From the NCBI GenBank assembly GCA_965279305.1, contig OZ257143.1, positions 600,001-632,000 of the forward strand: a DNA stretch of 32,000 nt, in the 5' to 3' direction. Positions 3,509-32,000 of this stretch are shown here, one piece after another; position 1 is the stretch's first letter; each line of letters begins with the position of its first letter. Origin of the DNA: Gammaproteobacteria bacterium. GTDB lineage: Bacteria; Pseudomonadota; Gammaproteobacteria; JBIOEC01. The notes under the pieces were generated by a model. The model worked only from the letters and a program-made list of their open reading frames with translations, did not search any database and was not told where the DNA came from. The translations under genes were made by a program, and so were the position numbers.

Positions 3509-4528
3509 CTAATTTCCCAAGCTAGGACTAGAGGATGCTGACGGTGGTGTAGGAGAGCAAGGAATTTGCTCGCTATTTTCGCCTAAAGTATAAAGAGCAC
3601 CTGGACCGTAATCCTTTAGTTCTTTAGTACAATCGAAATGCGACATTCTTACATATACCTTGGGTTCTGGAGCTACAGCCTCTTTAGTTGTTTGTGTTTG
3701 GCTGTATACTCTTAATACCTTAAATACCGGACCATATTTTCCATCGAGCCCTCGGGTCATGGCTAAGAAGTTGGCAGCCCCTATTTTTTCAATATGTGCT
3801 TCTAGGCCAGCCGCAATGGAAGGCATGCTTGGATGTTCAAGAGGAAGCTTATGCGTCCAACGAACTAATCGTTCAAAGTTTCTTTTTTCTTCTTCAGACA
3901 CTGGTTGAAAGCCTGCTTTGGTGGAATAACAATGTCCACGACTATGTACCCCAAACATTCCAGAATTACTTAACTGTGATAGCCTAGTTGGCTTGGCTTC
4001 GTACACAATGATAGCCGCTTGTAAATCTTCGAGTAATTCTTTGTAGTCTGTTTCATCTTTTGGAATACCATAAAGATCTTTATCCTTTTTTTGCAATACT
4101 ATTAACGCTTTTTTTAAATCATTTAAAATTCCTGGCGTATAGCCGTTTACTTCTAAAAAGGCATATAAAATTTCTTGTCTTTCATGATATCTTTTTTTAG
4201 CTGCTTCTAAAACAGGATCTACCGACACAAAAGGGACTGGTCTTTTTCTTAATGCGGTTAAAAGAGGCGCAAGTACTTTGTGATCACCTGCTGCAGATTG
4301 TATCTGAGCTGGAGTTGCATCAGGGTAATGCTGCTGGATTTGTTGTACGGCCTGTTGAAATTTAGGATCATAAGGTGGGCGAGAGGCCGCTTTCTGCACT
4401 AACGATTTAAATTCAGGAGGTGCGGTGCGCTCGCGATCAACATCAGCGGTACTGCTTAAAAAAGATCTAGCGACTAAAACGGTTTCTCGTGTAAGCACTC
4501 TTCTTGCAAATCTTGAAGCGGTTAACAT
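3509..4528 (-). CDS. hypothetical protein (orphan; candidate secreted effector)
   Basis: 339-aa ORF with an ATG start preceded by a TAAGGAT Shine-Dalgarno 7 nt upstream. It has its own AT-rich upstream region (4529-4626). No domain recognised. The N-terminus is Arg-rich (MLTASRFARRVLTRETVLVARSFLSS) and the C-terminal tail is Ser/Pro-rich (PCSPTPPSASSSPSLGN). Confidence 0.75.
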   Translation of the reverse strand: MLTASRFARRVLTRETVLVARSFLSSTADVDRERTAPPEFKSLVQKAASRPPYDPKFQQAVQQIQQHYPDATPAQIQSAAGDHKVLAPLLTALRKRPVPFVSVDPVLEAAKKRYHERQEILYAFLEVNGYTPGILNDLKKALIVLQKKDKDLYGIPKDETDYKELLEDLQAAIIVYEAKPTRLSQLSNSGMFGVHSRGHCYSTKAGFQPVSEEEKRNFERLVRWTHKLPLEHPSMPSIAAGLEAHIEKIGAANFLAMTRGLDGKYGPVFKVLRVYSQTQTTKEAVAPEPKVYVRMSHFDCTKELKDYGPGALYTLGENSEQIPCSPTPPSASSSPSLGN

Positions 4529-13894: not shown

Positions 13895-14632
13895 ATGAAA
13901 AGAATACTATTATTTTTTATTACCTTTATATTTATGAATACACTCGCTTCTGCTAAATTGCCGGATGGTTTTGTTTACGTTCATGACGTTGATCCCACTA
14001 TTATTATTAACATGAGTTATGCGCAAGAGCATAATTTTATTGGTAAACCGCTTTCAGGGTACAAAAAAAATGTAGCCATTTTGACGAAAGAAGCAGCGTT
14101 GGCATTAAGCAAAGTTCAACAAGCGGTAAAAAAAGATGGTTATACTCTTGTTATTTATGATGCGTACCGCCCACAAAAAACAGTGGATGAATTTGTGGTA
14201 TGGGGTAAAGATCATAACGATGATAAAATGAAACTTTATTATTATCCTGGTCTTGAAAAAGAAGATATTTTTAAACGTCAGTATGTGGCTGAAAAATCCA
14301 CCCATACTCGCGGCAGCACCGTGGATCTGACTCTTATTCCTATCGGCGATAAAGTAAAACCCATTACAGAAGAAAAAAGAAAATTAAATGATGGTTCTGA
14401 GGTTTATTATTTAAATGATGGCACTTTAGATATGGGAACCAGTTTTGATTTATTTGATAAAGCCTCGCATCCGGATTCCACACTTGTGGATGAAAAGTAT
14501 CAAGCTCGTAGACTTTACCTACAAGAAAAAATGGCGGAACAAGGGTTTATAGAGTATCCTTTTGAATGGTGGCATTTCACTTTGGGGAATGAACCATTTC
14601 CGGATACCTATTTTAACTTTGATGTGGAGTAA
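13895..14632 (+). CDS. D-alanyl-D-alanine dipeptidase (VanX/DdpX, peptidase M15D) with predicted signal peptide
   Basis: 245 aa. The zinc and catalytic blocks are YDAYRP, STHTRGSTVDLTL (SxHxxGxAxD-type) and EWWHFTL. The hydrophobic N-terminus MKRILLFFITFIFMNTLASA looks like a Sec signal. It starts 4 nt after the dnaN stop. Confidence 0.82.
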   Translation: MKRILLFFITFIFMNTLASAKLPDGFVYVHDVDPTIIINMSYAQEHNFIGKPLSGYKKNVAILTKEAALALSKVQQAVKKDGYTLVIYDAYRPQKTVDEFVVWGKDHNDDKMKLYYYPGLEKEDIFKRQYVAEKSTHTRGSTVDLTLIPIGDKVKPITEEKRKLNDGSEVYYLNDGTLDMGTSFDLFDKASHPDSTLVDEKYQARRLYLQEKMAEQGFIEYPFEWWHFTLGNEPFPDTYFNFDVE

Positions 14633-14635
14633 ACG

Positions 14636-15745
14636 ATGTCCCTCATTAAACAACTCACCTTGGGTTTGACTGCTATTCTTTCATTTAATATGGCATTTAA
14701 TGTTGCCCAAGCGGCCGATAAAGTGGTTCATGTATACAATTGGTCTGATTTTATTCCCCCCGATGTGTTAACCCGTTTTGAAAAAGACACAGGCATCAAA
14801 GTGGTTTACGATGTCTTTGATTCTAATGAAGTGTTAGAAACCAAATTATTTGCAGGCCACACGGGCTATGATGTGGTGGTGCCTTCTTCTTCCCCTTTCT
14901 TTGCTAGACAAATTCAAGCGGGCATTTATCAGCCTTTAGACAAAGCCAAGCTAACGAATTATAAAAACCTAGACACTGCTTTATTACAAAAATTAACCGT
15001 ATCAGATCCTGATAATAAATACGGCGTTCCTTATTTGTGGGGTACGGTAGGTATTGGTTATAACGTAGATAAAATAAAAGAGATCTTAGGCCCTGATGTG
15101 AAGCTGGATAGTTGGGATGTCTTATTTAAACCCGAAAATGCAGCCAAGCTTAAAGCGTGCGGCATATCCATGCTGGATTCTTCGGGCGTACTTTCTTTAG
15201 CTTTGGCCTACTTAGGCAAAGACCCTAATAGCACCAATGCACAGGATTACCAAGAAGATGCTAAAAAAGTGCTGATGGATATACGCCCTTATATTACTTA
15301 TTTTCACTCTTCTCAATATATTAACGATTTAGCCAATGGCGATATTTGTATTGCCTTGGGCTGGTCTGGCGATGTGATGCAAGCGTCTAAGCGTGCCAAG
15401 GAAAGTGGCAAAGGGATAAAAATAGAATATATGATCCCTAAAGAAGGTTCGGAAATATTTTTTGATATGATGGCAATTCCAAAAGACTCCAAAAATGTAG
15501 ATAATGCACTGGCCTTTATTAATTATATGATGAGCGCTGAAGTAGCTGCTGAGGCTACTAATTATCTGGGGTATGCTAATGCAAACTCGGCCTCTAACCC
15601 TTTTATTAATCAAAGTATTTTAAATAACCCAGGCATTTACCCTTCTTCTGCAATGGATAGTAAGTTATTTGTTTTAAAAGTAATGCCTCCCAATATTGAT
15701 AGAATAATGACCCGCACCTGGATCACGATAAAAACTGGACATTAA
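14636..15745 (+). CDS. potF: putrescine/polyamine ABC transporter substrate-binding protein (PotF/PotD family), paralogue 1
   Basis: 369 aa with a signal peptide (...FNVAQAADK). PotF-type blocks are YNWSDFIPPDVL..FEK.TGIKV.YD.FDSNE, PYLWGT.GIGYN and NDLANGDIC...WSGD. Confidence 0.86.
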   Translation: MSLIKQLTLGLTAILSFNMAFNVAQAADKVVHVYNWSDFIPPDVLTRFEKDTGIKVVYDVFDSNEVLETKLFAGHTGYDVVVPSSSPFFARQIQAGIYQPLDKAKLTNYKNLDTALLQKLTVSDPDNKYGVPYLWGTVGIGYNVDKIKEILGPDVKLDSWDVLFKPENAAKLKACGISMLDSSGVLSLALAYLGKDPNSTNAQDYQEDAKKVLMDIRPYITYFHSSQYINDLANGDICIALGWSGDVMQASKRAKESGKGIKIEYMIPKEGSEIFFDMMAIPKDSKNVDNALAFINYMMSAEVAAEATNYLGYANANSASNPFINQSILNNPGIYPSSAMDSKLFVLKVMPPNIDRIMTRTWITIKTGH

Positions 15746-15746
15746 A

Positions 15747-16853
15747 ATGAACATTTATAAAAATGCTTTTATTGGGCTTGTTTTTTTTCCTCTATCGGTA
15801 ATGGCTGCAGATGCCGCTACAGAAGAAAAAATATTAAATATTTATAATTGGGCGGATTATATTCCTGCTGATGTGTTGGAAGGCTTTGAAAAAGAAACTG
15901 GAATAAAAGTGAACTATGATACTTTTGATTCTAACGAAATTATGGAATCCAAAATATTAGCAGGCACTAGCGGATACGATTTGGTGGTCCCCACTGATAC
16001 GCCTTTTTTAAAACGTCAAATTGATGCAGGTATTTATCAAACACTAGATAAAACGTTGCTATCGAATTATAAAAATTTAGATGAAGCTTTATTAAAACAA
16101 TTACCTAAAACCGATCCTAAACATGAATATTCTATTCCTTATTTATGGGGTACCTTAGGTATTGGTTACAATGTTGAAAAAGTAAAAAAAGCATTAGGCG
16201 ATGATTTTCCTAAAGATAGCTGGGAGTTGTTTTTTAATCCTAAATATCTTTCTAAATTAAAAGACTGTGGTGTAGGTGTCACGGATTCTGGAACATTTAT
16301 GTTGTCAGTTACTTTACGATATCAAGGAAGAGATCCTAATAGCACAGATGTAAGAGATTATTACGCAGCCAAAATGTTATGGAAAGATATGCGCCCTTCT
16401 ATTCGTTATTTTAGTAATAGCCAACATATTAATGATTTAGCCAATGGTGATATTTGTTTATCTGTAACATGGTCCGGTGATGTGATGATGGCTAAAGAAC
16501 GAGCGAAAGAAGCTAAGAACGGACAAGTGATTGAATATATTATTCCTAAAGAAGGCACGTTTGTTGGGTTTGATAATTTTGCTATTCCTAAAGATGCTAA
16601 GCATGTAAAAGAAGCGCATCTATTTATTGATTATATGTTGCGTGCTGAATCAGCAGCGAGAGCTTCTAATGAATTGGGATATCCTAATGCGAATAAAGCA
16701 TCCTATGATTTATTAGATAAAGACTTAAGGACAGATCCGAATGTTTATCCCCCTGCAATTGTTATGAAAAAATTCTATGCTTTAGATCCGGTGGGGCCTG
16801 TTGCAGAGCGCGCTCGCACTCGACTCTGGACTTCTATCACGGCTGGCCGCTAA
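15747..16853 (+). CDS. potF: putrescine/polyamine ABC transporter substrate-binding protein (PotF/PotD family), paralogue 2
   Basis: 368 aa with a signal peptide (...LSVMAADA). It shows the same conserved blocks as paralogue 1, with roughly half the positions identical by eye. It starts 1 nt after the paralogue 1 stop. Confidence 0.86.
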   Translation: MNIYKNAFIGLVFFPLSVMAADAATEEKILNIYNWADYIPADVLEGFEKETGIKVNYDTFDSNEIMESKILAGTSGYDLVVPTDTPFLKRQIDAGIYQTLDKTLLSNYKNLDEALLKQLPKTDPKHEYSIPYLWGTLGIGYNVEKVKKALGDDFPKDSWELFFNPKYLSKLKDCGVGVTDSGTFMLSVTLRYQGRDPNSTDVRDYYAAKMLWKDMRPSIRYFSNSQHINDLANGDICLSVTWSGDVMMAKERAKEAKNGQVIEYIIPKEGTFVGFDNFAIPKDAKHVKEAHLFIDYMLRAESAARASNELGYPNANKASYDLLDKDLRTDPNVYPPAIVMKKFYALDPVGPVAERARTRLWTSITAGR

Positions 16854-16895
16854 AACATTCCGTCATTGCGAGGCCGCTTCGGCCGTGGCATCCAT

Positions 16896-17723
16896 TTAAA
16901 GATCTTTATTTTCTTTTTGGCGACGTTTATCGTTACGAATAGTCATTAAAGTAGCGAGGATACCAATAGTGGTTACGATGGCAATCATCACACTGGCCAG
17001 CGCGTTAATTTTAGGGTTAACACCTAAACGCACGCTAGAATAAATCTGCATAGGCAACGTGGTTGAGCTAGGGCCCGCCACAAAGCTAGAAATGACCAAG
17101 TCATCTATTGATAAAGTAAACGCTAGTAACCAGCCGGATATTAATGCCGGAGCGATAATGGGTAACGTAATGACAAAAAACACTTTCATTGGTGTCGCCC
17201 CTAAATCCATGGCAGCCTGCTCTAATGACTCATCCATTTCACGTAATCGTGATGAAACAATAATAGCTACGTAAGACGTGGTAAAAGTAACATGGGCAAT
17301 CCATAGTGTTAGCATGCCTCGCCCTTCTGGAAACCCTATCATTTCCTGCGAGGCTACAAATAAGAGTAATAACGATAAACCGGTTATCACTTCTGGCATT
17401 ACCAAGGGAATACTCATTAGGGCTGAGAAAAGAGTTTTACCTTTAAACTTTCCTAAACGGGTAAGGATTAACCCCACTGCTGTTCCTAGGCCTACTGCGG
17501 CAGTAGCACTAAAGATAGCAATTCGTAAACTCACCCAAGCAGCAGATAACAATGCTTTGTCATTTAATAGTTCTTGATACCAAATAGTAGAAAAACCAGA
17601 CCATACGGTGACTAGTTTTGATTCATTAAAGGAATAAACGATTAAGATAGCGATAGGAATATACAAAAAAGCATATCCAAAAGCTAAAGCTGAAAAGAGA
17701 AAGCGCGAGCGTTTAGGCGTCAT
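16896..17723 (-). CDS. potI: polyamine ABC transporter permease PotI
   Basis: Multi-TM permease with the EAA-type loop EQAAMDLGATPMKVFFVITLPIIAP. I place the start at ATG 17723 (MTPKRSRF...), which overlaps the potH stop as ATGA. The track ORF's 35-codon extension runs inside potH. Confidence 0.86.
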   Translation of the reverse strand: MTPKRSRFLFSALAFGYAFLYIPIAILIVYSFNESKLVTVWSGFSTIWYQELLNDKALLSAAWVSLRIAIFSATAAVGLGTAVGLILTRLGKFKGKTLFSALMSIPLVMPEVITGLSLLLLFVASQEMIGFPEGRGMLTLWIAHVTFTTSYVAIIVSSRLREMDESLEQAAMDLGATPMKVFFVITLPIIAPALISGWLLAFTLSIDDLVISSFVAGPSSTTLPMQIYSSVRLGVNPKINALASVMIAIVTTIGILATLMTIRNDKRRQKENKDL

Positions 17724-18628
17724 GAGCGTTCCTCTTCTATCGATTTGTTTTGGTAATAAGTAAATAAGAGAATGGGGATCATCAACATAATGACCATTAC
17801 CACGGCAACGGCTGATGCCACAGGCCAATCACGATTATTAAAAAATTCTTGCCATAATACTTTACCAATCATCAAGGTATCGGGGCCGCCTAATAAATCA
17901 GGGATCACAAATTCACCCACGGCAGGAATAAAAACTAACATGGCGCCTGCAATAATACCTGCTTTAGATAAAGGAATGGTAATGCTCCAAAAAGCTTTCC
18001 ATGGGCGCGCCCCTAAATCCATGGCGGCATCTAGCAAACCATAATCAATTTTGACGAGAATGGCATAAAGAGGCAATATCATAAAAGGTAAGTAACCATA
18101 AACAATTCCTAAATACACTGCAAAATCGGTGTGCAATAAAGCAAGAGGTTGATCGATAATTCCAAGGCTCATGAGTAATTGATTAAGCATGCCATTATTT
18201 TTTAAAATTCCCATCCAGGCATAAATACGAATTAAAAAAGAAGTCCATGATGGCAATACGACTAACATTAATAAAAAATGGCGAAGAGGTGTTGGTGTGC
18301 GAGCAATGGCATATGCCATTGGATAACCGATTAATAAACAGAGTATAGTAGAAATAAATGCAATTTTTAGAGAGCTTAAATAAGCAGCAGCATATAAAGC
18401 ATCAGTAAATAAAAAAAGATAATTGGCAAAGCTGGCAGTGATATGTAAGCTGCCATTCGCCCAATGAAATAAATTGGTATAAGGCGGAATGGAAACGGCC
18501 ATTTGGCTGAAGCTAATTTTGAATACAATTAATAGCGGAATAACCAGGAAAAAAATAAACCACAAAACCGTCAGTGATATAAGAAGAGAATGATTAGAGC
18601 GAAACAGTGAGTTTAGATACTGTTTCAT
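17720..18628 (-). CDS. potH: polyamine ABC transporter permease PotH
   Basis: 302-aa multi-TM permease with the EAA loop DAAMDLGARPWKAFWSITIPLSK. Its ATGA start overlaps the potG stop. Confidence 0.88.
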   Translation of the reverse strand: MKQYLNSLFRSNHSLLISLTVLWFIFFLVIPLLIVFKISFSQMAVSIPPYTNLFHWANGSLHITASFANYLFLFTDALYAAAYLSSLKIAFISTILCLLIGYPMAYAIARTPTPLRHFLLMLVVLPSWTSFLIRIYAWMGILKNNGMLNQLLMSLGIIDQPLALLHTDFAVYLGIVYGYLPFMILPLYAILVKIDYGLLDAAMDLGARPWKAFWSITIPLSKAGIIAGAMLVFIPAVGEFVIPDLLGGPDTLMIGKVLWQEFFNNRDWPVASAVAVVMVIMLMIPILLFTYYQNKSIEEERS

Positions 18629-19785
18629 ACGCTTAACACCACCGCACTATCGGGTTCCCAGCTAACATATACTTTGTCATTCCAGGTGATTTCTAATTTG
18701 TTTTTGCGATCCATATTGTAAATATTGGCGAGAATAATTTTTCCGCTAGGAAGTGCAATATGATAAATAGAATGGCTTCCCATATACGCGATATCTCGAA
18801 CGAAACCTTTCACACTGTTTTGATATTTATTATTGGAAATATCTTTGGGTGCTTTCTTAGATAAAAACATTTTTTCAGGACGAACTCCTACCCACACTTC
18901 CATTCCTAAATCATAAGAAACGCCGTGATTAACATAAATAGGATTTTCCAAATCAGGAGATTTAATTAAAACATATTCGGCTTCATCTTCAATAATCACG
19001 CCTTTAAATAAATTAATCGATCCAATAAAATCGGCAGTGAATAAAGTAGTGGGTGTTTCGTATACTTCTTTGGGAGCGCCGATTTGTAAAATGCGTCCTT
19101 TATCCATTACACCAATACGTCCTGTCATGGTCATCGCTTCTTCTTGATCATGCGTTACCATTAAACAGGTTACACCTACGCTTTCAATAATATTAGCAAT
19201 CTCTAATTGCATTTGTTCACGCAATTGTTTATCTAATGCTCCCATGGGTTCATCAAGCAATAATAGTTTCGGTTGTTTTGCTAAACTTCTGGCGAGTGCC
19301 ACACGCTGACGTTGTCCGCCTGATAATTGATGAGGTTTTCGTTTGGCATAGGCATCCATTTGAACCATCTGTAACATTTTTTCTACGCGTTCTTTAATCA
19401 ATGCTTTTGGCATTTTGTCTTGCTTAAGTCCGAACGCAATATTTTGTTCAACAGTCATATGAGGAAACAATGCATAAGATTGGAACATCATATTCACTGG
19501 ACGTAAATAAGGAGGAACATGGGTCATATCAACGCCATCAATAAAGAATTGACCGCGTGTAGGCTCTTCAAAGCCCGCTAACATATGTAATAGCGTGGAT
19601 TTTCCGCTACCAGAGCTGCCTAATAGCCCAAATATTTCACCTTTTTTGATGTCTAAGCTAACGTTATCGACCGCTACAAACCGATCAAAGGCCTTGGTTA
19701 GTCCTTTTATTTGTATATAAGCGTCATTTTTCTCTTTAGAAAGCGCATCTTGAGGCGGTTGAACATTTAAAAAAGGATCTGTCAT
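18625..19785 (-). CDS. potG: polyamine ABC transporter ATP-binding protein PotG/PotA
   Basis: 386 aa with Walker A GSSGSGKST, ABC signature LSGGQRQRVALAR, Walker B LLLLDEP and a C-terminal TOBE-like regulatory domain. Confidence 0.92.
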   Translation of the reverse strand: MTDPFLNVQPPQDALSKEKNDAYIQIKGLTKAFDRFVAVDNVSLDIKKGEIFGLLGSSGSGKSTLLHMLAGFEEPTRGQFFIDGVDMTHVPPYLRPVNMMFQSYALFPHMTVEQNIAFGLKQDKMPKALIKERVEKMLQMVQMDAYAKRKPHQLSGGQRQRVALARSLAKQPKLLLLDEPMGALDKQLREQMQLEIANIIESVGVTCLMVTHDQEEAMTMTGRIGVMDKGRILQIGAPKEVYETPTTLFTADFIGSINLFKGVIIEDEAEYVLIKSPDLENPIYVNHGVSYDLGMEVWVGVRPEKMFLSKKAPKDISNNKYQNSVKGFVRDIAYMGSHSIYHIALPSGKIILANIYNMDRKNKLEITWNDKVYVSWEPDSAVVLSV

Positions 19786-24580: not shown

Positions 24581-26167
24581 ATGGTTAGATATTTAGACGT
24601 TATATCAAATAAGTACGCAGGCGAATTTACGTACGTGCGTGATCATGAAAGAGATATTCTTGATTCCAATCGTTTAAGCGGGAATGCTCTGCGTGAAGAA
24701 ATAACTCGCTATTATAACAGCGATGTATCTCGTGCTTTTGCCGAAATTGAAGTAGGCGATTTTCCTTCTGAGATGACAGAAGCTGATGGAACAGTATTGT
24801 TAGATAATTTATATCTCAAAGAAACAGACTCTAAAACCGCAGAACACAATTTAGAAATCTGGTGGAATAAACGGGTAAAAGATTTCTTTGAAGATTTGAA
24901 CCGTATTGATGAAAAGACAAATACGACATATGCGGAACAAATATTTTCAAAAGTTCAATTGGGAAATGAACGTTTTCAAGACTACGCAGTAGGATTGCCC
25001 ATCTATCTTGCCAATACTTATCTTCAAAGAGCAACCATGAAAGCTCTTACTTTTGCTTCTGCTGAAATGCAAAGAACGGGCGGCAGCTGGCTAGGTAATG
25101 TATTAAGTTCGAAAACCCAAGATATAGTAAATAACCTTCTTGCTGAAAGAAAAGCAGATTTTGATTTGCGTACTCAAGAAAGACTGGAAGATTTTGCCAA
25201 TGCACTTAGTGATATAAGTACATTCTCTGAAGATGAGATAGCAGATGCTGTTATTCTTTCTGAAGATGACATCGCTGGCGCTTTAGACGGCGAACTGCAA
25301 AGAGCAGAAAAAGGCGAGCATACGCTAGCTACCCCTGATCAGCACCCTACTTCTTTACCGCGTGAAAAGGGGGCGTTGAAAAAATTGGATCAGTGGATCT
25401 TTGGTCACAAAACAGATAAAGCTGCATCAGAAAAATTAGCTCATGAGATTATCAATTATCTTTATACAGAAGATGACGCAGGCAAATTTAATATACACAA
25501 ATTAATGGATGAATTGATTGATACCAAAGGAAATTCTGCTGAATATAATCGTTACCAGCAAAAATGTGTGGCACAAGTATTTAATTATGTATTTGATATG
25601 ATTAGAGGTCATTCTGCTTCTCCGGAGAATCAAAAATACAGAAATAAATTATTGGAAAAAGAAAATAAAGCCCAAGCTAATATTAGTAAGCGCGAAGGTA
25701 TTTCCTTAGTTACCGCCGTAAGACGATTTAACGCACGTTTACAAAGAGTTAAACCGGCTGATCTTAAAGAAACCTTTTTTGAAGACTCTTTGAGCAAAGC
25801 GGGTGCTTTGTATGGAAATGAAGGTCGCCGTGTATCAAGTGCCGAAAAAAATACATTAAGAGATGAATTAGTAGATAACGTTAATGATATCACTAACAAA
25901 TTAGATAACGCTTCTTTAGGATTCCGTGATACGCTAAAAACATTTATAAAAGACATGGTTGAATGGGTTGCTAAGAAATTCACTCGTAGTGCCGATGCTG
26001 TATATGATAGTACCGGTGCGTTGAGTAGTAGTTCGGCAAGCACTCAAAGTTCTCGATTTGTAGGAAGAACTACGCAAGAATTCCATAAAGATGTAGAGAA
26101 GTTTGTTCCTACTAAAAAAGAACTTTTAACTCCGCCGCCATCCCATGGCGCAGCCCCTAGCGCTTAA
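24581..26167 (+). CDS. hypothetical protein (orphan; candidate secreted effector)
   Basis: 528-aa hydrophilic ORF with no signal peptide, no TM segment and no recognised domain. It has an acidic 11-aa tandem repeat, SEDEIADAVIL/SEDDIAGALDG. The C-terminal tail is Ser/Pro/Ala-rich (...SSSSASTQSS...ELLTPPPSHGAAPSA). Confidence 0.75.
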   Translation: MVRYLDVISNKYAGEFTYVRDHERDILDSNRLSGNALREEITRYYNSDVSRAFAEIEVGDFPSEMTEADGTVLLDNLYLKETDSKTAEHNLEIWWNKRVKDFFEDLNRIDEKTNTTYAEQIFSKVQLGNERFQDYAVGLPIYLANTYLQRATMKALTFASAEMQRTGGSWLGNVLSSKTQDIVNNLLAERKADFDLRTQERLEDFANALSDISTFSEDEIADAVILSEDDIAGALDGELQRAEKGEHTLATPDQHPTSLPREKGALKKLDQWIFGHKTDKAASEKLAHEIINYLYTEDDAGKFNIHKLMDELIDTKGNSAEYNRYQQKCVAQVFNYVFDMIRGHSASPENQKYRNKLLEKENKAQANISKREGISLVTAVRRFNARLQRVKPADLKETFFEDSLSKAGALYGNEGRRVSSAEKNTLRDELVDNVNDITNKLDNASLGFRDTLKTFIKDMVEWVAKKFTRSADAVYDSTGALSSSSASTQSSRFVGRTTQEFHKDVEKFVPTKKELLTPPPSHGAAPSA

Positions 26168-27595: not shown

Positions 27596-28783
27596 TTGAG
27601 TAAAACATCTAATAATCGCTACATATTGCTATTAACAATTATTTTAATTACGTTATGGCACGGTAATATTGATATTTATATCACGGCAGTTCCTTCCATG
27701 ATGACAGCGTTGGCAACTGATAGCGCACATCTCAAATTATCTATCACTTTTACGGTATTGGGTTTTGGTGTTTCTCAACTCATTTATGGTCCATTATCTG
27801 ATCATTATGGAAGACGCCATATTACTTTAATTGGTCTTGTTATTTTTATTATAGGCAGCGCACTTTGTGCCAGCGCTGATCAAGTGGAATGGTTGCTCGC
27901 CGGGCGATTAATTCAAGGACTAGGTATTGGTTGTGCCGGTGCTATTGCTACCGCGGTACCTAGAGATATTTTTTCTGGAAAAGAACTTAATCGAGCATTT
28001 GCTTATATCTCAACTTCCATCGCTTTAACACCAGCTGTTGCTCCTTTATTAGGAAGTTATTTACAGGCATGGTTTGGGTGGCGTTCTACTTTTCTTTTTC
28101 TACTTATTTATGGCGTAGTAGTTTGTGTTTTATTTTATTTATATTTCCCCGAAACGAATAAGCATCGTAAACAGCAATCTCTTAATTTAAAAAACACTAT
28201 CAACAATTATATAAAGGTATTAAGCGATCGTCCTTATATGGGATATTTATTTTGCATTATCTTTTTATATACGGGAGAGCTCGCTTATATTTTACAAATG
28301 CCCTTAGTGCTGCAACATGAATTTGGATTAACTCCCGTACAAAATGGATGGACCATTATTATGACCGCTTGTGCAATGGGATTAGGTGCTTTTTCTTCTT
28401 CCTATTTGGTGAAACAACATTCTATTTCTACTTTGATTTTTCTGGGTATTTCAGTGATTACCGTGAGTGCTTTATTGATGCTTGTTTTCCCTTTGCTCTC
28501 TATTTACAACGCGTATTCTTTTGTTGGGCTGATGATGATTTATATGTTTGGATCAGGTCTTACTTTTAATAATTGTATCGCTGGATGTATGGATCGTTTC
28601 CCCCAGCAAGCAGGATTAGCGGGTGCATTATTAAGTGGTTTATTGATGTTATGTACGGGATTATTAACCTTAATTGTAGTGAAAATGTCTTATTCAAATC
28701 CTTATGTGATCCCTCTTTTTATATTAGCGTGCAGTGCAGGATTATTTGCGGCATTTTTAGGAATGGCCAGACGCGATTCTTAA
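27596..28783 (+). CDS. MFS transporter, Bcr/CflA-type drug resistance family
   Basis: About 12 TM segments and the MFS motif-A-like GPLSDHYGRRHITLIG. I favour the TTG start at 27596 (LSKTSNN...), which has a GAGAGGGA Shine-Dalgarno 5 nt upstream. The track ORF begins at 27557. Confidence 0.82.
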   Translation: MSKTSNNRYILLLTIILITLWHGNIDIYITAVPSMMTALATDSAHLKLSITFTVLGFGVSQLIYGPLSDHYGRRHITLIGLVIFIIGSALCASADQVEWLLAGRLIQGLGIGCAGAIATAVPRDIFSGKELNRAFAYISTSIALTPAVAPLLGSYLQAWFGWRSTFLFLLIYGVVVCVLFYLYFPETNKHRKQQSLNLKNTINNYIKVLSDRPYMGYLFCIIFLYTGELAYILQMPLVLQHEFGLTPVQNGWTIIMTACAMGLGAFSSSYLVKQHSISTLIFLGISVITVSALLMLVFPLLSIYNAYSFVGLMMIYMFGSGLTFNNCIAGCMDRFPQQAGLAGALLSGLLMLCTGLLTLIVVKMSYSNPYVIPLFILACSAGLFAAFLGMARRDS

Positions 28784-30042
28784 CGTGCTGTAACAAGCTC
28801 ATTCCATTGAGTGGTATAGGCAGGCGATCGCTTATCACAACGTGCTTGCCAGGTTCTACTGGTTCCTTGTGCTGCAATAAAAACCGTATGAGAACCCATG
28901 CGTTGATTAATATTATCCATCAGTTGCATTCTGCTATTTGCTTTTTCATCTTTTTCAGGGGAATAAAAAAGATCCGATTGATTCATGGTTTCTTGTGTTA
29001 AATCTAATAAAATCACTCCTGTTTTTTTATAATATAAACCAGGGCGAAAAATACGCGATAATGCTTTTTTAGCTTCGGCAATAATAAAGCAAGTATCTTG
29101 AGTAGGATGAGCAAACGCGCATGAGAGCCCTCTACTATAATAATCCACATTAATATTAAACCGATTTGTTTTTAGCATAACATGTACACCTTGCGCATAA
29201 CTCCCCTGCTCTCGCAATTTTTCGCATGCTCTAGCGGTATAATGAGAAAGAGCTTCAGCAACATCATCGTAACTCGTTAATGTTTTACCAAACGATCGGG
29301 CGGAACGAATATTTTTAGAAGGCTCAGAAAAAGAATCTAACGATAAACACGCACGGCCTTGCAGCTCATATAATATTTTTTCGCCATACACGCTAAAGTG
29401 TTTACGAATAAATTTAGGATCGCTATCTCGAAATTGTTTGGCTGTAGCAATGCCCAAATCGCGCGCTTTTAGCGCCGACTGATAGCCAATGCCCCAAATA
29501 TCTCCTACAGGGGTTTCATTTAATATTTTATTTTGTAAAAAAGGATCGCTTAAATTACATACTCCTATGGTTTTGTTTCGCTTAGCAATCAGGTTCGCCA
29601 ATTTCGCCAATACTTTGGTGGGTGCTATTCCAATAGAAACGGGAATACCTGTCCATTGTTTTACTTTGTGGCGGATGAGTTTGGCGTATTGGGTGACGCC
29701 TTCGTGCACAAAACTATCCAGCTGTAAAAAAGCTTCATCAATAGAATAAACTTCCATTTCTGGGCAAAAATGATGCAAGGTAGACATCACCCGATCTGAC
29801 ATGTCGCCGTAGAGTTGATAATTAGAAGAAAACACATGAATACGGTGTTGGCGGCAAATATCTTTATATTGGTAATAAGCCTTACCCATAGGCACCAAAG
29901 GCTTGGCTTCGTTAGAGCGTGAAATCACACAACCATCATTATTGGAAAGAATAACAATAGGTTTGTTTTCCAAAGAGGGGTTAAATACCCTTTCACACGA
30001 GGCATAAAAATTATTGCAGTCGACTAGCGCAAATATAGGCAT
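28780..30042 (-). CDS. umuC: Y-family translesion DNA polymerase, UmuC-like
   Basis: 420 aa with N-terminal FALVDCNNFYASCERVF, ILSNNDGCVISRS and YSIDEAF blocks typical of UmuC/Pol V. No UmuD-like (S24 peptidase) ORF is adjacent. Confidence 0.9.
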   Translation of the reverse strand: MPIFALVDCNNFYASCERVFNPSLENKPIVILSNNDGCVISRSNEAKPLVPMGKAYYQYKDICRQHRIHVFSSNYQLYGDMSDRVMSTLHHFCPEMEVYSIDEAFLQLDSFVHEGVTQYAKLIRHKVKQWTGIPVSIGIAPTKVLAKLANLIAKRNKTIGVCNLSDPFLQNKILNETPVGDIWGIGYQSALKARDLGIATAKQFRDSDPKFIRKHFSVYGEKILYELQGRACLSLDSFSEPSKNIRSARSFGKTLTSYDDVAEALSHYTARACEKLREQGSYAQGVHVMLKTNRFNINVDYYSRGLSCAFAHPTQDTCFIIAEAKKALSRIFRPGLYYKKTGVILLDLTQETMNQSDLFYSPEKDEKANSRMQLMDNINQRMGSHTVFIAAQGTSRTWQARCDKRSPAYTTQWNELVTAR

Positions 30043-30101
30043 GATGGTTCCTTGCTTTTAATAAAGAATATCGTACAATAATCAAAATAGCAAGGTAGAA
30101 T

Positions 30102-30890
30102 TTAGGGGATGTGGGCGTGAGTGATAAGGCCAGCGAGTGTCCAGGCTTTTAATAATGAAGCCGCGCGTAGTGCAATATGTTCATCTTCTTGTGAATAGTT
30201 AGCTAAGCCTTCACATATTTCTCCAAAGGTAGCGCCTGCTTGCATGGCATCGATAGCCCAGGCTTCATCTTCTGCTATAGAGCAAAAGTGATTCATTAAA
30301 TCGTTTCGCCAAAAAATCCAAGGTACAGGTGTTTCATTTATTTCAGGCGCAGGCGGATCTTCTTCATTATTTAAGGCTTGCCATAGCGCTACTACATTCC
30401 ACGATAAATTGACGCGATGCAAAGAAGGATGCGGCTGTAATTTCATATTTATCCAATCGTTAGGTGATATATGAGACAGCGTTTCTATAGATATACTCTG
30501 TGCATTTTCTGAATCAAATACCAGCGCCATTAACCATTCTATTTGTGCTAGTTCGGCTAGGTATGGATAGTTTTGATAAACACGGTGTTGTTTTAAAAAA
30601 ACAGCTAAATGATCTCCAAACCAGCGGATAGAACGAAAGGTAGAAGGATAAACATCGGCATATTCATTTCCCAAAGTGTTAAATCTTTCCTCTCCCATAT
30701 AGATTAAAAGGGCTGGATAGGTAATGGTTAATGTTTCAATTAAACGAGATTTGTAAGCATGGGCATAAATAGCTAAGCGTTTTTCTGCAGAGACATTTTT
30801 TGTGCTGACAATGGAATTTTTAATTTGTAGTTTTTGTGGATCTAATAAGTGTTGTTGAAATGCGTTTTGTAATAAGGGTAGTTCGCTCAT
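30102..30890 (-). CDS. DUF2063-family protein (HvfC/BufC-like partner of DUF692 enzymes)
   Basis: 262 aa. The pattern LQNAFQQHLL...RLAIYAHAYKSRLIETL...YPAL...G...F..L...Y....PS...S.RWFGDHL..FL is typical of DUF2063. Its ATGA start overlaps the upstream DUF692 gene's stop. Confidence 0.83.
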   Translation of the reverse strand: MSELPLLQNAFQQHLLDPQKLQIKNSIVSTKNVSAEKRLAIYAHAYKSRLIETLTITYPALLIYMGEERFNTLGNEYADVYPSTFRSIRWFGDHLAVFLKQHRVYQNYPYLAELAQIEWLMALVFDSENAQSISIETLSHISPNDWINMKLQPHPSLHRVNLSWNVVALWQALNNEEDPPAPEINETPVPWIFWRNDLMNHFCSIAEDEAWAIDAMQAGATFGEICEGLANYSQEDEHIALRAASLLKAWTLAGLITHAHIP

Positions 30891-31738
30891 GCCGGTGTTT
30901 CCATAGCTAAATGGTGTTTTGCTATTTGACGTGCATGATTAAGTTCTTTTATAAGCTCTTCTAGAGGAGGAATATGATCATCACGCTCAATCATAGTAGA
31001 AATGGGGCCAAAACGTTTTAGTGTTTTGTCATAGAGATCCCAGACCGGATCGACAATAGGATGATCATGTGTATCAATAATGCAATCATCTAAACGAGAA
31101 TGTCCTGCTAAATGAATTTGAAACACTCTATCTAACGGCAATGCGTTAATATAATCTACAGGATTAAATTCATGATTAACGGAACTTACATAAACATTAT
31201 TAACATCTAATAAAATAAGACAATCCGCTTTTTCGGCAATAGCAGATAAAAATTCCCATTCAGACATTACCGATTGTTGATAGGTAATATAGCTCGAGAG
31301 ATTTTCAATTAAGATGCGTTGTCCTAAAAAATCTTGTACTTGATGTATACGAGAAGCAACATGATTGATGGCTTCTTCTGTGTAAGGTAATGGTAATAAA
31401 TCATGCATGTTTTTTTGATCAACACCTGTCCAACAAAGATGATCCGATAACCATTGAGGTTTTACCCGCTCCATTAAAGTTTTCACTTGGCGCAAATAAT
31501 CCCAATCGATAGGATCGGTGCTGCCTATCGATAAAGACACACCATGCATTACCATAGGATATTTTTCGCGAATTCGATCCAGATAATATAACGGTTTGCC
31601 GCCAGGAACTAAGTAATTTTCGGTTAAAATTTCGAGCCAATCTACAGGAGGGTTGTTATTCAAAATAGCCTCGTAATGATCGGGTCTTAAACCTAATCCG
31701 AAGCCTAAAAATTTTTTGTGTGGGGTTGAATATGTCAT
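30887..31738 (-). CDS. DUF692/UPF0276 family enzyme (multinuclear non-haem iron oxidase type; MbnB/HvfB/BufB-like)
   Basis: 283 aa. The blocks GFGLGLRPDHY, VDWLEILTENY, MHGVSLSIGS, LSDHLCW, LIENLSSY, LLDVNNVYVS and IHLAGHS are characteristic of DUF692 TIM-barrel proteins. Confidence 0.9.
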   Translation of the reverse strand: MTYSTPHKKFLGFGLGLRPDHYEAILNNNPPVDWLEILTENYLVPGGKPLYYLDRIREKYPMVMHGVSLSIGSTDPIDWDYLRQVKTLMERVKPQWLSDHLCWTGVDQKNMHDLLPLPYTEEAINHVASRIHQVQDFLGQRILIENLSSYITYQQSVMSEWEFLSAIAEKADCLILLDVNNVYVSSVNHEFNPVDYINALPLDRVFQIHLAGHSRLDDCIIDTHDHPIVDPVWDLYDKTLKRFGPISTMIERDDHIPPLEELIKELNHARQIAKHHLAMETPA

Positions 31739-31752
31739 CGTGTTTTAGAATT

Positions 31753-31786
31753 AAAAAGCGCGCTTAGACTAGCCAAACGCGCTTTA
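31753..31786 (-). promoter_or_regulatory. intergenic stem-loop between precursor ORF and DUF692 gene
   Basis: An 8-bp stem, aaagcgcg (31785-31778 on the minus strand) / cgcgcttt (31762-31755), has a 15-nt loop. A short T-run follows it on the minus strand. It lies in the 67-bp spacer. Confidence 0.4.
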
Positions 31787-31805
31787 TTTTACAGCAGATG
31801 CATTA

Positions 31806-32000
31806 TTATTGATTATTTTGGTTCATATGATCTTTGATCATTGTGCCGCCTTTAGCTTTACAATCAGCTGCAGACATTTCCATAACGCCTTTACCTTTGC
31901 AAGAATTCATTCCTTTGCAAGAGTTCATTGATGTTTTGCATTGACCGTGGCCTTTACATGAGTTAACACCTTCACATTTAACCATGTGGTTTGTGCCCAT
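31806..32000 (-). CDS. Cys-rich small protein, putative RiPP precursor/substrate of the DUF692-DUF2063 pair (5' end probably beyond window)
   Basis: The 64 visible residues are MGTNHMVKCEGVNSCKGHGQCKTSMNSCKGMNSCKGKGVMEMSAADCKAKGGTMIKDHMNQNNQ. They contain six Cys, three of them in (M/V)NSCKG repeats. The frame is open right to the window edge, so a leader or signal peptide may lie upstream. Confidence 0.7.
   Translation of the reverse strand: MGTNHMVKCEGVNSCKGHGQCKTSMNSCKGMNSCKGKGVMEMSAADCKAKGGTMIKDHMNQNNQ

Follow-up and report, generated by a model that had tools for sequence, protein, structure and literature searches.

The bufferin 2 family was described between 2024 and 2026, and one of its members is encoded by the Caulobacter vibrioides buf2ABC operon (CCNA_02999-03001), which lacks bufD. 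Its peptide shows a mass change of -18 Da overall, with -4.03 Da at each central Cys and unmodified outer Cys residues, absorbs near 305 nm and is copper-induced (PMC11626156). Legionella genomes carry several bufferin clusters, Buf2 included, and sigma/anti-sigma genes have been found in Buf1 clusters and not in those of Buf2 (PMC12452194). For Buf1, the reported copper stoichiometry is 1:1. Among the captophorins, NACKG is a common 5-mer of the ‘Cys-Lys’ group, and an Asp, not Phe, after the catalytic Asp of the enzyme has been put forward as the partner of the substrate Lys (PMC13097082).

We analysed a window of 32,000 nucleotides (contig OZ257143.1, positions 600,001 to 632,000) from a gammaproteobacterium related to Legionellales. 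The DNA of this host is AT-rich (39% GC), and the locus is chromosomal. Its features are as follows:

31806..32000, minus strand: bufA2 precursor gene, truncated at the 5′ end and complete at the 3′ end (stop codon TAA at 31806-31808), assigned from the NF050166 match
31739..31805, minus strand: bufA-bufB spacer of 67 bp, read from the sequence
31750..31785, minus strand: terminator-like stem-loop and T-run, from a consensus scan and fold energy
30887..31738, minus strand: bufB, MNIO/DUF692 enzyme of 283 aa, assigned from NF050167 and PF05114
30102..30890, minus strand: bufC, predicted DUF2063 plus RRE-like partner (PME type 1) of 262 aa, assigned from PF09836 and AlphaFold/Foldseek
28780-30042, minus strand: umuC, 59 bp beyond bufC

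We read the region as a canonical Buf2-type bufferin operon, bufA2-bufB-bufC, of the ‘Cys-Lys’ captophorins, with a copper-buffering mechanism assigned by homology; we estimate the probability of this reading at roughly 0.86. The locus is a further member of the described family and not a new system. The first-pass annotation had recognized a RiPP metallophore cassette made of a Cys-rich precursor, an MNIO (DUF692) enzyme and a DUF2063 partner, and had proposed profile-HMM searches. Its coordinates, gene sizes, Cys counts, hairpin spacer and ATGA overlap all agreed when rechecked, and the cassette was borne out by the BufA2, BufB and PF09836 models, each of which scored above its cut-off, and by PF05114. 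The ORFs are far above chance (PF05114, E = 1.7e-114; PF09836, E = 2.1e-16; BufA2 model, E = 1.5e-19), and the ATGA overlap couples translation of bufC to that of bufB. Two of its novelty claims are not supported. The system type is not uncharacterised, since mass spectrometry and genetics exist for C. vibrioides Buf2 and NCBIfam holds BufA2 and BufB equivalogs; nor are the missing DoxX and sigma/anti-sigma genes an anomaly, as bufD is absent from C. vibrioides buf2 and the sigma genes have been reported from Buf1 only. The annotated genes of the window include no DoxX or ECF sigma factor, and no copper-homeostasis or regulatory genes were found in it.

The visible part of bufA2 encodes 64 residues with six Cys at positions 9, 15, 21, 28, 34 and 47, in the contexts VKCEG, VNSCKG, GQCKT, MNSCKG, MNSCKG and ADCKAKG. 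NF050166 (Cu_RiPP_BufA2) scores 70 bits (cut-off 60) over model positions 28-78 of 79, despite 30 absent N-terminal residues; against Pfam, BufA2 returned zero matches. Homologues number 562, and the six Cys columns are invariant in 121 aligned sequences, as are Lys16 and Gly17, with Lys35 nearly so. The peptide had been placed ‘closer to a 6-Cys class’, which these data confirm. Its (M/V)NSCKG repeat had been called unusual and is in fact the Buf2/BUF_6/12Cys consensus, which reads VxCxGVNSCKGxSxCKxAxNxCKGMNSCKGKG in the 121 relatives.

Three orthologues (P0001, L081 and L082; 95% identical in protein and ~92% in DNA) run 30 codons further upstream, as MNNTKS(F/I)TKTVAAAAALAFTAIVASSAYAN-MGTNH..., and the ATG at 32000 is therefore not the start codon; an internal ATG is in keeping with the NF050166 match beginning at model position 28. 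The P0001 and L082 precursors are 94 aa long and provide the absent signal peptide. These N-termini imply that both the signal peptide and residue 1 of the predicted core lie beyond the window edge. In the orthologues, the signal peptide, which lies outside the window and was assigned by eye, reads MNNTKS(F/I)TKTVAAAAALAFTAIVASSAYA before the N of the core, with a basic n-region, a 15-residue hydrophobic h-region and an AxA site; cleavage is predicted in relatives after AYA, between SSAYA and NMGTNH. A lipoprotein form was considered and rejected, as the P0001/L081/L082 group lacks the lipobox that other family members have. Values of dN/dS against L081 and L082 range from 0.02 to 0.15, and bufA2, bufB and bufC are all under purifying selection. 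The AlphaFold model of the core (moderate confidence, pLDDT 68.5) has C9 on its first strand and C47 on a short helix, as described for the two Cys of the bufferin disulphide (PMC11626156). A Foldseek search of the PDB with this model, the confidence of which is only moderate, returned no meaningful match.

BufB scores 392.9 bits with NF050167 (MNIO_BufB; cut-off 310), and 3BWW is the nearest of the solved structures (E = 6e-58). Mapping from MbnB (His54, His90, Glu133, Asp163, Asn166, His192, Asp208, His210 and Glu239) predicts the iron ligands H65, H100, E145, D178, N181, H209, D222, H224 and E251. D253, which aligns with Asp249 of FonB, is the predicted catalytic base. These nine ligands and D253 are invariant in all 80 related loci, which were gathered through searches with the BufA2 peptide and BufC; a search of public assemblies for the exact BufB sequence gave no match. 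The ligand E251 and the base form part of the motif E251-R-D253-D254, in which D254 is the predicted Cys-Lys specificity residue. Site 254 is Asp in 76 of the 80 loci and accompanies precursors with a C-K order. It is Gly in two loci (L053 and L061) with precursors that read CAG/CAT, and the second MNIO of another locus (L050), which adjoins an EGKCG precursor, has Phe there. Across these sequences the site co-varies with the substrate, in a manner that fits the specificity rule of PMC13097082. The ‘Lys-Cys’ captophorins differ accordingly from the system described here: their precursors contain EGKCG repeats, with Lys before Cys, which are absent from BufA2, and in their enzymes the catalytic Asp is followed by Phe and an Arg-Arg pair lies near the N-terminus, where BufB has ERDD and LRP. 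The 3BWW protein likewise has ERDF in place of ERDD.

BufC matches PF09836 over residues 7-99 (60.4 bits, cut-off 27.2). No BufC-specific family model exists for scoring; the HvfC model covers the full length of the protein (E = 4.3e-9) at a score below its cut-off (36.6 versus 142). The AlphaFold model of BufC has two domains and a pLDDT of 94.9, and a Foldseek search with it returned TglI (PDB code 8HI7_A, E = 1.2e-5) and NGO1945 (PDB code 3DEE, E = 4.3e-5, TM 0.71), followed by RRE proteins of lasso-peptide systems. A search of PDB sequences with the single BufC sequence gave nothing significant, and a 26-sequence profile returned only 3DEE, at a non-significant E of 0.12. The two-domain assignment, a DUF2063 domain plus an RRE-like fold, is therefore a prediction drawn from AlphaFold and Foldseek.

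The three genes also stay together in other genomes. Of the 80 loci that carry a related BufB gene, 62 have a same-strand bufA2 immediately upstream of it. The remaining 18 include three with a divergent bufA2, one with a hit ~2 kb upstream and two cut by contig ends; a search for an alternative Cys-rich ORF found nothing convincing in 15 of these 18. A bufC homologue directly follows bufB at 79 of the 80 loci, and the one exception stops at a contig edge.

Compared with C. vibrioides buf2, the locus has the same composition (a six-Cys Sec precursor, an MNIO and a DUF2063 partner) and the same NCBIfam families, BufA2 and BufB, and neither locus has doxX/bufD or adjacent sigma/anti-sigma genes. 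The hosts differ, one being an alphaproteobacterium and the other a Legionellales-like gammaproteobacterium. The core described here is Met/His-rich and ends in an NQNNQ tail. In the published numbering, the unmodified Cys24 and Cys50 of C. vibrioides are spaced by 26, versus 38 for C9-C47. The promoter in close relatives of our locus looks sigma-70-like and not of the SigF type, and a SigF/NrsF link is not visible; in L081 and L082 this promoter, TTGACT-16-TATTAT, sits in a gap of ~127 bp between bufA2 and a divergent LigD-phosphoesterase gene. The Cys spacing, the ordinary look of the promoter and the lack of copper-homeostasis or regulatory genes in the window count against the Buf2 reading. 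Predicted Legionella Buf2 systems (e.g. WP_010947964 of L. pneumophila subsp. fraseri; PMC12452194) belong to the same family and come from a related order, but against named Legionella species BufC reaches only 44-46% identity and BufB 67%; an uncultured Legionellales MAG is the nearest genome (78%, BufB). Bufferin 1/gig shares the enzyme-partner pair, Sec export, copper protection and the proposed central 5-thiooxazoles with an outer-Cys disulphide. It differs in its four-Cys DUF2282 precursor, as BufA2 has six Cys and no DUF2282 signature, and its clusters usually include DoxX (bufABCD) and often SigF/NrsF, none of which was found at this locus. HvfABC/oxazolin, gonophorin and fontiphorin likewise combine an MNIO and a DUF2063-RRE partner with a Sec-exported Cys-rich precursor and yield a 5-thiooxazole metallophore; the HvfB model scores 297.1 bits on BufB, below its cut-off of 360.

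If the homologous C. vibrioides Buf2, FonBC and HvfBC systems are a guide, the BufA2 precursor would measure ~94 aa, Sec signal peptide included, and in the cytoplasm it would be bound by BufC and handed to BufB. With O2, the Fe(II)/Fe(III) cluster of BufB would then oxidise each central Cys by four electrons, converting NSC15KG, GQC21KT, NSC28KG and NSC34KG to 5-thiooxazoles at a cost of 4 Da per Cys, with D254 pairing with the Lys after each target Cys; modified and unmodified Cys are distinguished here by their order within the invariant six and not by direct alignment. Sec would export the precursor, cleavage would occur after AYA, and the outer C9 and C47 would form a disulphide. For the 65-aa core, a monoisotopic mass of 6907.98 Da is predicted before modification, and the four thiooxazoles would lower it by 16 Da in the reduced state and by 18 Da in the oxidised, mature form (6889.84 Da). 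The mature peptide of ~65 aa would be held in the periplasm, where it would chelate excess Cu(I)/Cu(II) and buffer copper stress.

The composition of the core raises the question of whether copper buffering is its whole role. Its 64 residues include eight Met and three His (17%), whereas the median for Met plus His is 5% in the 120 nearest BufA2 relatives, and Met accounts for 2.6% of the residues in the window's proteins. The Met and His residues of the core include those of an N-terminal stretch (NMGTNHM) and a C-terminal tail (MIKDHMNQ), and relatives from the Legionellales clade have Met/His-rich C-terminal tails too. The same biosynthesis could in principle serve another end, such as binding of a different metal, transfer of Cu(I) to a partner or protection from phagosome stress. 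The enrichment, if taken as a sign of specialised function, and its recurrence in the clade would suit such a role, as would the absence of copper genes nearby, and MerC-bufferin fusions suggest other metals in some family members (PMC12452194). All characterised members of the family, however, act on copper. Periplasmic copper proteins typically bind Cu(I) through Met/His-rich motifs, and the enrichment therefore fits copper at least equally well. We consider a role beyond copper buffering unlikely. Within the copper-buffering reading, a tentative extension is that this Met/His-rich bufferin 2 of a Legionellales-related clade might have extra Cu(I) sites beside its four thiooxazoles. If so, these sites would raise the copper capacity above 1:1 or allow hand-off to another protein.

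Downstream of the operon, umuC shares the strand of bufC, a consensus scan found no terminator-like site in the 59-bp gap between them, and the same adjacency occurs in L081, all of which could point to co-transcription and a functional link. A promoter-like site nevertheless lies just upstream of umuC, and the downstream neighbours of bufC vary in ORF size and strand among the 80 related loci; the few that were translated are, by eye only, likely queC, likely cysteine-metabolism enzymes and unknowns, with no DoxX-sized ORF evident just downstream of bufC among the translated candidates. In L082, moreover, an opposite-strand higBA toxin-antitoxin pair separates bufC from umuC, and because of this insertion we reject a functional link to bufABC; that umuC belongs with the operon at all is improbable. 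Its description as an orphan umuC is accurate within the window and fails beyond it, as a close relative has umuD 5.4 kb upstream.

The chemistry assigned to BufB also has a methanobactin-like alternative, in which the product would be an oxazolone/thioamide and not a 5-thiooxazole. This was the first assignment for HvfB products (PMC11252979), and the two structures are isobaric, so that mass alone cannot separate them. MbnABC does share with the present system the MNIO fold, the iron ligands and the oxidation of Cys to a copper-binding heterocycle, but it uses a short leader-core precursor for a secreted oxazolone/thioamide chalkophore and has MbnC as partner in place of a DUF2063 protein (7TCR_C matches BufC with E = 0.87 only). 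The MbnB model (TIGR04159) gives BufB 60.5 bits, far from its cut-off of 325. According to later reports (PMC13097082, 10.64898/2025.12.15.693703, 10.64898/2026.06.05.730506), oxazolin was reassigned to 5-thiooxazole, and this structure is supported for the products of MNIO enzymes with PME-type-1 partners generally, bufferins included. An oxazolone/thioamide product thus seems very improbable. Lastly, an assembly of a DNA-binding DUF2063 regulator, a DUF692 TIM-barrel resembling sugar isomerases and an unmodified secreted protein, as the Pfam text for PF09836 (still ‘putative DNA-binding domain’) and the deposition of 3DEE as a ‘putative regulatory protein’ might suggest, can be dismissed given the tight co-conservation of the three genes, the co-variation of BufB residue 254 with the substrate, the resemblance of BufC to TglI, whose crystal structure is that of the holoenzyme formed with the MNIO TglH, and published reconstitutions that effectively refute it, BufB1C1 having been reconstituted in vitro (PMC11626156).

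Within the Buf2-type operon, the spacer between bufA2 and bufB contains a stem-loop at 31785-31755, which lies 21 nt past the bufA stop codon and consists of 13 pairs (6 G-C) and a loop of five, AAAGCGCGTTTGG-CTAGT-CTAAGCGCGCTTT, followed by a T-run. Folding gives -20 kcal/mol (z = -2.5), a stability equalled by 4 of 200 shuffled sequences. The hairpin is identical in L082 and nearly identical in L081, and 50 of 59 related loci have a strong stem-loop (z < -2) at the same position, with unrelated sequences. An Rfam scan of the whole window returned no family at the gathering score, and the hairpin therefore does not correspond to a known riboswitch or leader. It probably terminates or stabilises some transcripts, and as a partial terminator or mRNA-stabilising element it may leave more precursor than enzyme transcript. 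A dedicated attenuator that sets the precursor-to-enzyme ratio is a more speculative proposal. A limited search of the bufferin literature found no mention of a stem-loop after bufA2.

The locus adds one member, from an uncultured Legionellales-related host, to the periplasmic copper-binding RiPPs, a family that is very large and has already been described, and it opens no new question. Its relatives nonetheless provide an independent check, through natural variation, on the proposed pairing of an enzyme Asp with a substrate Lys, the residue being Asp for CK, Gly for CA and Phe for KC precursors. The conserved hairpin after the precursor gene is a possible stoichiometry device, and the Met/His-rich core offers a comparison case for the copper capacity of the Caulobacter peptide. 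Bufferins may also be important for intracellular bacteria of amoebae or macrophages, hosts that use copper against them.

The three minus-strand genes at the edge of the window form a standard Buf2-type bufferin operon, a family that has already been described. The operon and the gene that follows it are arranged as listed here.

31806-32000, minus strand: bufA2, the precursor, a small ORF open at the window edge, with 64 residues and six Cys
31739-31805: bufA-bufB spacer, 67 bp
31785-31755: stem-loop in the spacer, 13 pairs, six of them G-C, then a T-run
30887-31738, minus strand: bufB, 283 aa
30102-30890, minus strand: bufC, 262 aa, overlapping bufB by ATGA
28780-30042, minus strand as bufC: umuC, 420 aa, 59 bp after bufC

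Both the list of ORFs and the reverse complement bear out the layout described in the first-pass annotation (ORF sizes, six Cys, 67-bp spacer, hairpin, ATGA overlap and 59-bp gap), and the DUF692 and DUF2063 assignments were also correct. In Pfam, the 283-aa BufB is an MbnB_TglH_ChrH protein (PF05114, E = 1.7e-114), and the N-terminal 100 residues of BufC match DUF2063 (PF09836, 60.4 bits against a cut-off of 27.2). BufB scores 392.9 bits (cut-off 310) with the NCBIfam model “MNIO family bufferin maturase” and stays under the cut-offs of the HvfB, ApyH, ChrH and MbnB models, while the HvfC model aligns with BufC over its full length yet scores under its equivalog cut-off. The peptide, whose Cys residues lie in the contexts VKCEG, VNSCKG, GQCKT, MNSCKG, MNSCKG and ADCKAKG, has no Pfam match. 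It matches the NCBIfam equivalog “BufA2 family periplasmic bufferin-type metallophore” (70 bits, cut-off 60; model positions 28-78 of 79). The system proposed from the sequence is thus real and was properly typed, but its status as unusual and uncharacterised did not hold. The gene downstream of bufC encodes a UmuC-type Y-family polymerase (Pfam, NCBIfam).

A search with the visible BufA2 peptide returned 562 homologues. The top hit, the 94-aa orthologue P0001, is 95% identical, and its contig, L081, matches the window at 92.4% DNA identity across 2239 bp; the genes follow in the same order there, and umuC again comes 59 bp after bufC. A second close relative, the 50-kb contig L082, was reached through a 95%-identical BufC and carries the same precursor. 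Because the precursors of both relatives start further upstream, with MNNTKS(F/I)TKTVAAAAALAFTAIVASSAYA-NMGTNHMVKCEG, the ATG at 32000 is an internal Met. Judged from these relatives, the 30 codons absent from the window encode the signal peptide and the first core residue, and the signal peptide is predicted to be of the classical Sec type, with AYA as its cleavage motif and no lipobox; the start of the HMM match at model position 28 agrees with this missing N-terminus. In both relatives the upstream neighbour is a divergent LigD 3'-phosphoesterase gene, and the 127-bp gap between holds a good sigma-70-like site (TTGACT-16-TATTAT).

Conservation was assessed in 80 genome loci with BufB relatives of 63-78% identity, the nearest being from an uncultured Legionellales MAG. 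A bufA2 homologue lies immediately upstream on the same strand in 62 of them, so that the small ORF is indeed conserved beside DUF692 genes, and a bufC homologue lies immediately downstream of bufB in 79, the lone exception stopping at a contig edge. The precursors share a common signal peptide and the core VKCxGVNSCKGxxxCKxxxNxCKGxNSCKGKG...C, and across 121 aligned relatives the six Cys, G11, N13, K16, G17, N32, G36 and G38 are invariant. The (M/V)NSCKG repeat, at first taken for an unusual substrate, is therefore the family consensus, in agreement with the literature (PMC11626156, PMC13097082). C. vibrioides BufA2 founded the BUF_6/12Cys cluster, the second-largest MNIO substrate group (PMC11626156), named “Cys-Lys” captophorins by the Mitchell group, with NACKG among the common 5-mers (PMC13097082). 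Values of dN/dS against L081 and L082 are 0.02-0.15 for all three genes, which indicates purifying selection on bufA2, bufB and bufC. As a separate observation, a 209-aa precursor of Legionella nautarum (L057 5261-5890), upstream of a BufB 67% identical to that of the window, combines a signal peptide with an extended low-complexity region rich in Gly, Ser and Asn, followed by tandem NNCKS(Y/K) repeats that contain 14 Cys, a layout that differs from both the 6-Cys and the duplicated 12-Cys ones.

The lack of DoxX and sigma/anti-sigma genes, which had been noted, is not an oddity. The C. vibrioides buf2 operon (CCNA_02999-03001) has no bufD/doxX gene (PMC11626156), and in a survey sigma and anti-sigma genes were present in Buf1 BGCs and absent from Buf2 BGCs (PMC12452194); the three-gene layout of the window therefore matches characterised buf2. 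Downstream of bufC, the ORFs of the 80 loci vary in size and strand, and ten that were translated appeared, by eye only, to be queC-like, cysteine-metabolism enzyme-like or unknowns.

The closest solved structure to BufB is 3BWW (E = 6e-58), an Hvf-type enzyme that has ERDF and an Arg-Arg pair where BufB has ERDD and LRP. Iron ligands were mapped by aligning BufB to M. trichosporium MbnB (7TCR), with the MbnB ligands taken from PMC9060507.

Predicted iron ligands of BufB and their MbnB counterparts
MbnB His54: BufB H65
MbnB His90: BufB H100
MbnB Glu133: BufB E145
MbnB Asp163: BufB D178
MbnB Asn166: BufB N181
MbnB His192: BufB H209
MbnB Asp208: BufB D222
MbnB His210: BufB H224
MbnB Glu239: BufB E251

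All nine, together with D253, the counterpart of the proposed catalytic base FonB-Asp249, are invariant across the 80 relatives. The site after the catalytic Asp is Phe in “Lys-Cys” enzymes, which act on EGKCG-repeat substrates, and Asp in “Cys-Lys” enzymes, where a contact with the substrate Lys has been modelled (PMC13097082). This residue is D254 in the window, and Asp occurs there with C-K precursors in 76 of the 80 loci. It is Gly in L053 and L061, whose precursors, encoded with their bufB genes (L053 5632-5883; L061 3841-4092), show CAT/CAG/CAG for three of their four central Cys. Two further loci, L050 and L066, have a second MNIO with Phe at this site, and therefore two side-by-side MNIO genes; the Phe-type enzyme of L050 adjoins an EGKCG-repeat precursor (L050 3578-3844), and no such precursor was recovered beside that of L066. 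Natural variation at site 254 supports the Asp/Phe substrate rule.

Comparison of the BufC sequence with the PDB gave nothing significant. Its AlphaFold model, built from 68 homologues (pLDDT 94.9), comprises two domains, the N-terminal one helical and the C-terminal one built of three strands and three helices. Foldseek matched the model to TglI, the partner of the MNIO TglH (8HI7_A, E = 1.2e-5), and to NGO1945 (3DEE, E = 4.3e-5, TM 0.71), with weaker matches to lasso-peptide RRE proteins and MbnC. As modelled, BufC has the DUF2063 plus RRE architecture termed PME type 1.

The maturation of BufA2 can be inferred by homology to C. vibrioides Buf2, whose mature peptide is 18 Da below the core mass, with -4.03 Da on each central Cys, the first and last Cys unmodified and probably disulphide-linked, and absorbance near 305 nm (PMC11626156). 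That operon is induced by copper and protective against it, and in vitro BufB1 and BufC1 are both required and together suffice, DoxX being dispensable (PMC11626156). More recent reports assign the modification as 5-thiooxazole throughout this MNIO clade (PMC13097082, 10.64898/2025.12.15.693703, 10.64898/2026.06.05.730506). By analogy, the BufA2 precursor would be exported by Sec and cleaved after AYA, C15, C21, C28 and C34 (numbered from the first residue in the window) would become 5-thiooxazoles, C9 and C47 would form a disulphide, and the 65-aa product would act as a periplasmic copper chelator. In the AlphaFold model of the core peptide, which has a pLDDT of 68.5, C9 lies in the first strand and C47 in a short helix, as reported for the disulphide of bufferins (PMC11626156). 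Here and in the 120 relatives the outer Cys have a spacing of 38 residues, against 26 in C. vibrioides Buf2 by its published numbering (Cys24 and Cys50; PMC11626156).

The window is the chromosomal origin region; some of its genes, and some of those near umuC in L082, are as follows.

1-24357: origin gene cluster (gidB, mnmG, mnmE, yidC, rnpA, dnaA, dnaN, recF, gyrB)
13895-14632: VanX-like D-Ala-D-Ala dipeptidase, between dnaN and recF
14636-19785: PotF-type polyamine ABC transporter, between dnaN and recF
L082 5583-6098: umuD
L082 10786-11331, minus strand: higB/higA toxin-antitoxin pair, between bufC and umuC
L082 11468-12730: umuC

After gyrB come a HAD hydrolase, a BON-domain protein, an MFS transporter and then umuC. 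The window holds no copper or regulatory genes and gave no match in an Rfam scan. Two of its ORFs, of 528 aa (24581-26167, plus strand) and 339 aa (3509-4528, minus strand), have no Pfam or NCBIfam matches; for the former, L082 has a 537-aa counterpart in the corresponding position. The description of umuC as an orphan is right within the window, where umuD is lacking, but in L082 a UmuD gene (NF007621, 163.9 bits, cut-off 110) lies 5.4 kb upstream, separated from umuC by pabB/pabA-like genes, the LigD-PE gene, bufABC and higBA. A umuDC pair appears to have been split by insertions or rearrangement. The higBA pair is missing from the window and from L081, and is a recent indel among very close relatives; this insertion and the distant UmuD gene argue that umuC is not part of the bufABC unit. 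Within the bufC-umuC gap (30043-30101) lie an inverted repeat of 7 bp (CCTTGCT...AGCAAGG) and a weak promoter-like site (TTAAAA-18-TATATT); no terminator-like site or obvious LexA box was seen in it.

Of the 64 residues of the BufA2 core, 8 are Met and 3 His (17%; median of the 120 nearest relatives 5%), a share that ranks the peptide second of 121, tied with its orthologue. Across the proteins of the window Met accounts for 2.6%, against which a naive binomial test gives P of ~2e-4 for the core, and Met/His-rich tails also occur in neighbours of the same clade. As Met and His are common Cu(I) ligands, the core may possibly offer extra copper sites. The spacer stem-loop has a folding energy of -20 kcal/mol (z = -2.5 relative to shuffled sequences), and 50 of 59 loci have a strong stem-loop (z < -2) just behind the bufA2 stop codon (an example of such a spacer is L001 5929-6000). 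We found no mention of it in the main text of two bufferin papers. The stem-loop sequences are unrelated across taxa, and a T-run is also present in ~23 loci. In other RiPP operons, partial termination at a hairpin behind the precursor gene is well known, and on this ground the stem-loop may serve to set the ratio of precursor to enzyme. The minor points of this locus could inform studies of how these enzymes gain their specificity, of operon stoichiometry and of copper capacity.
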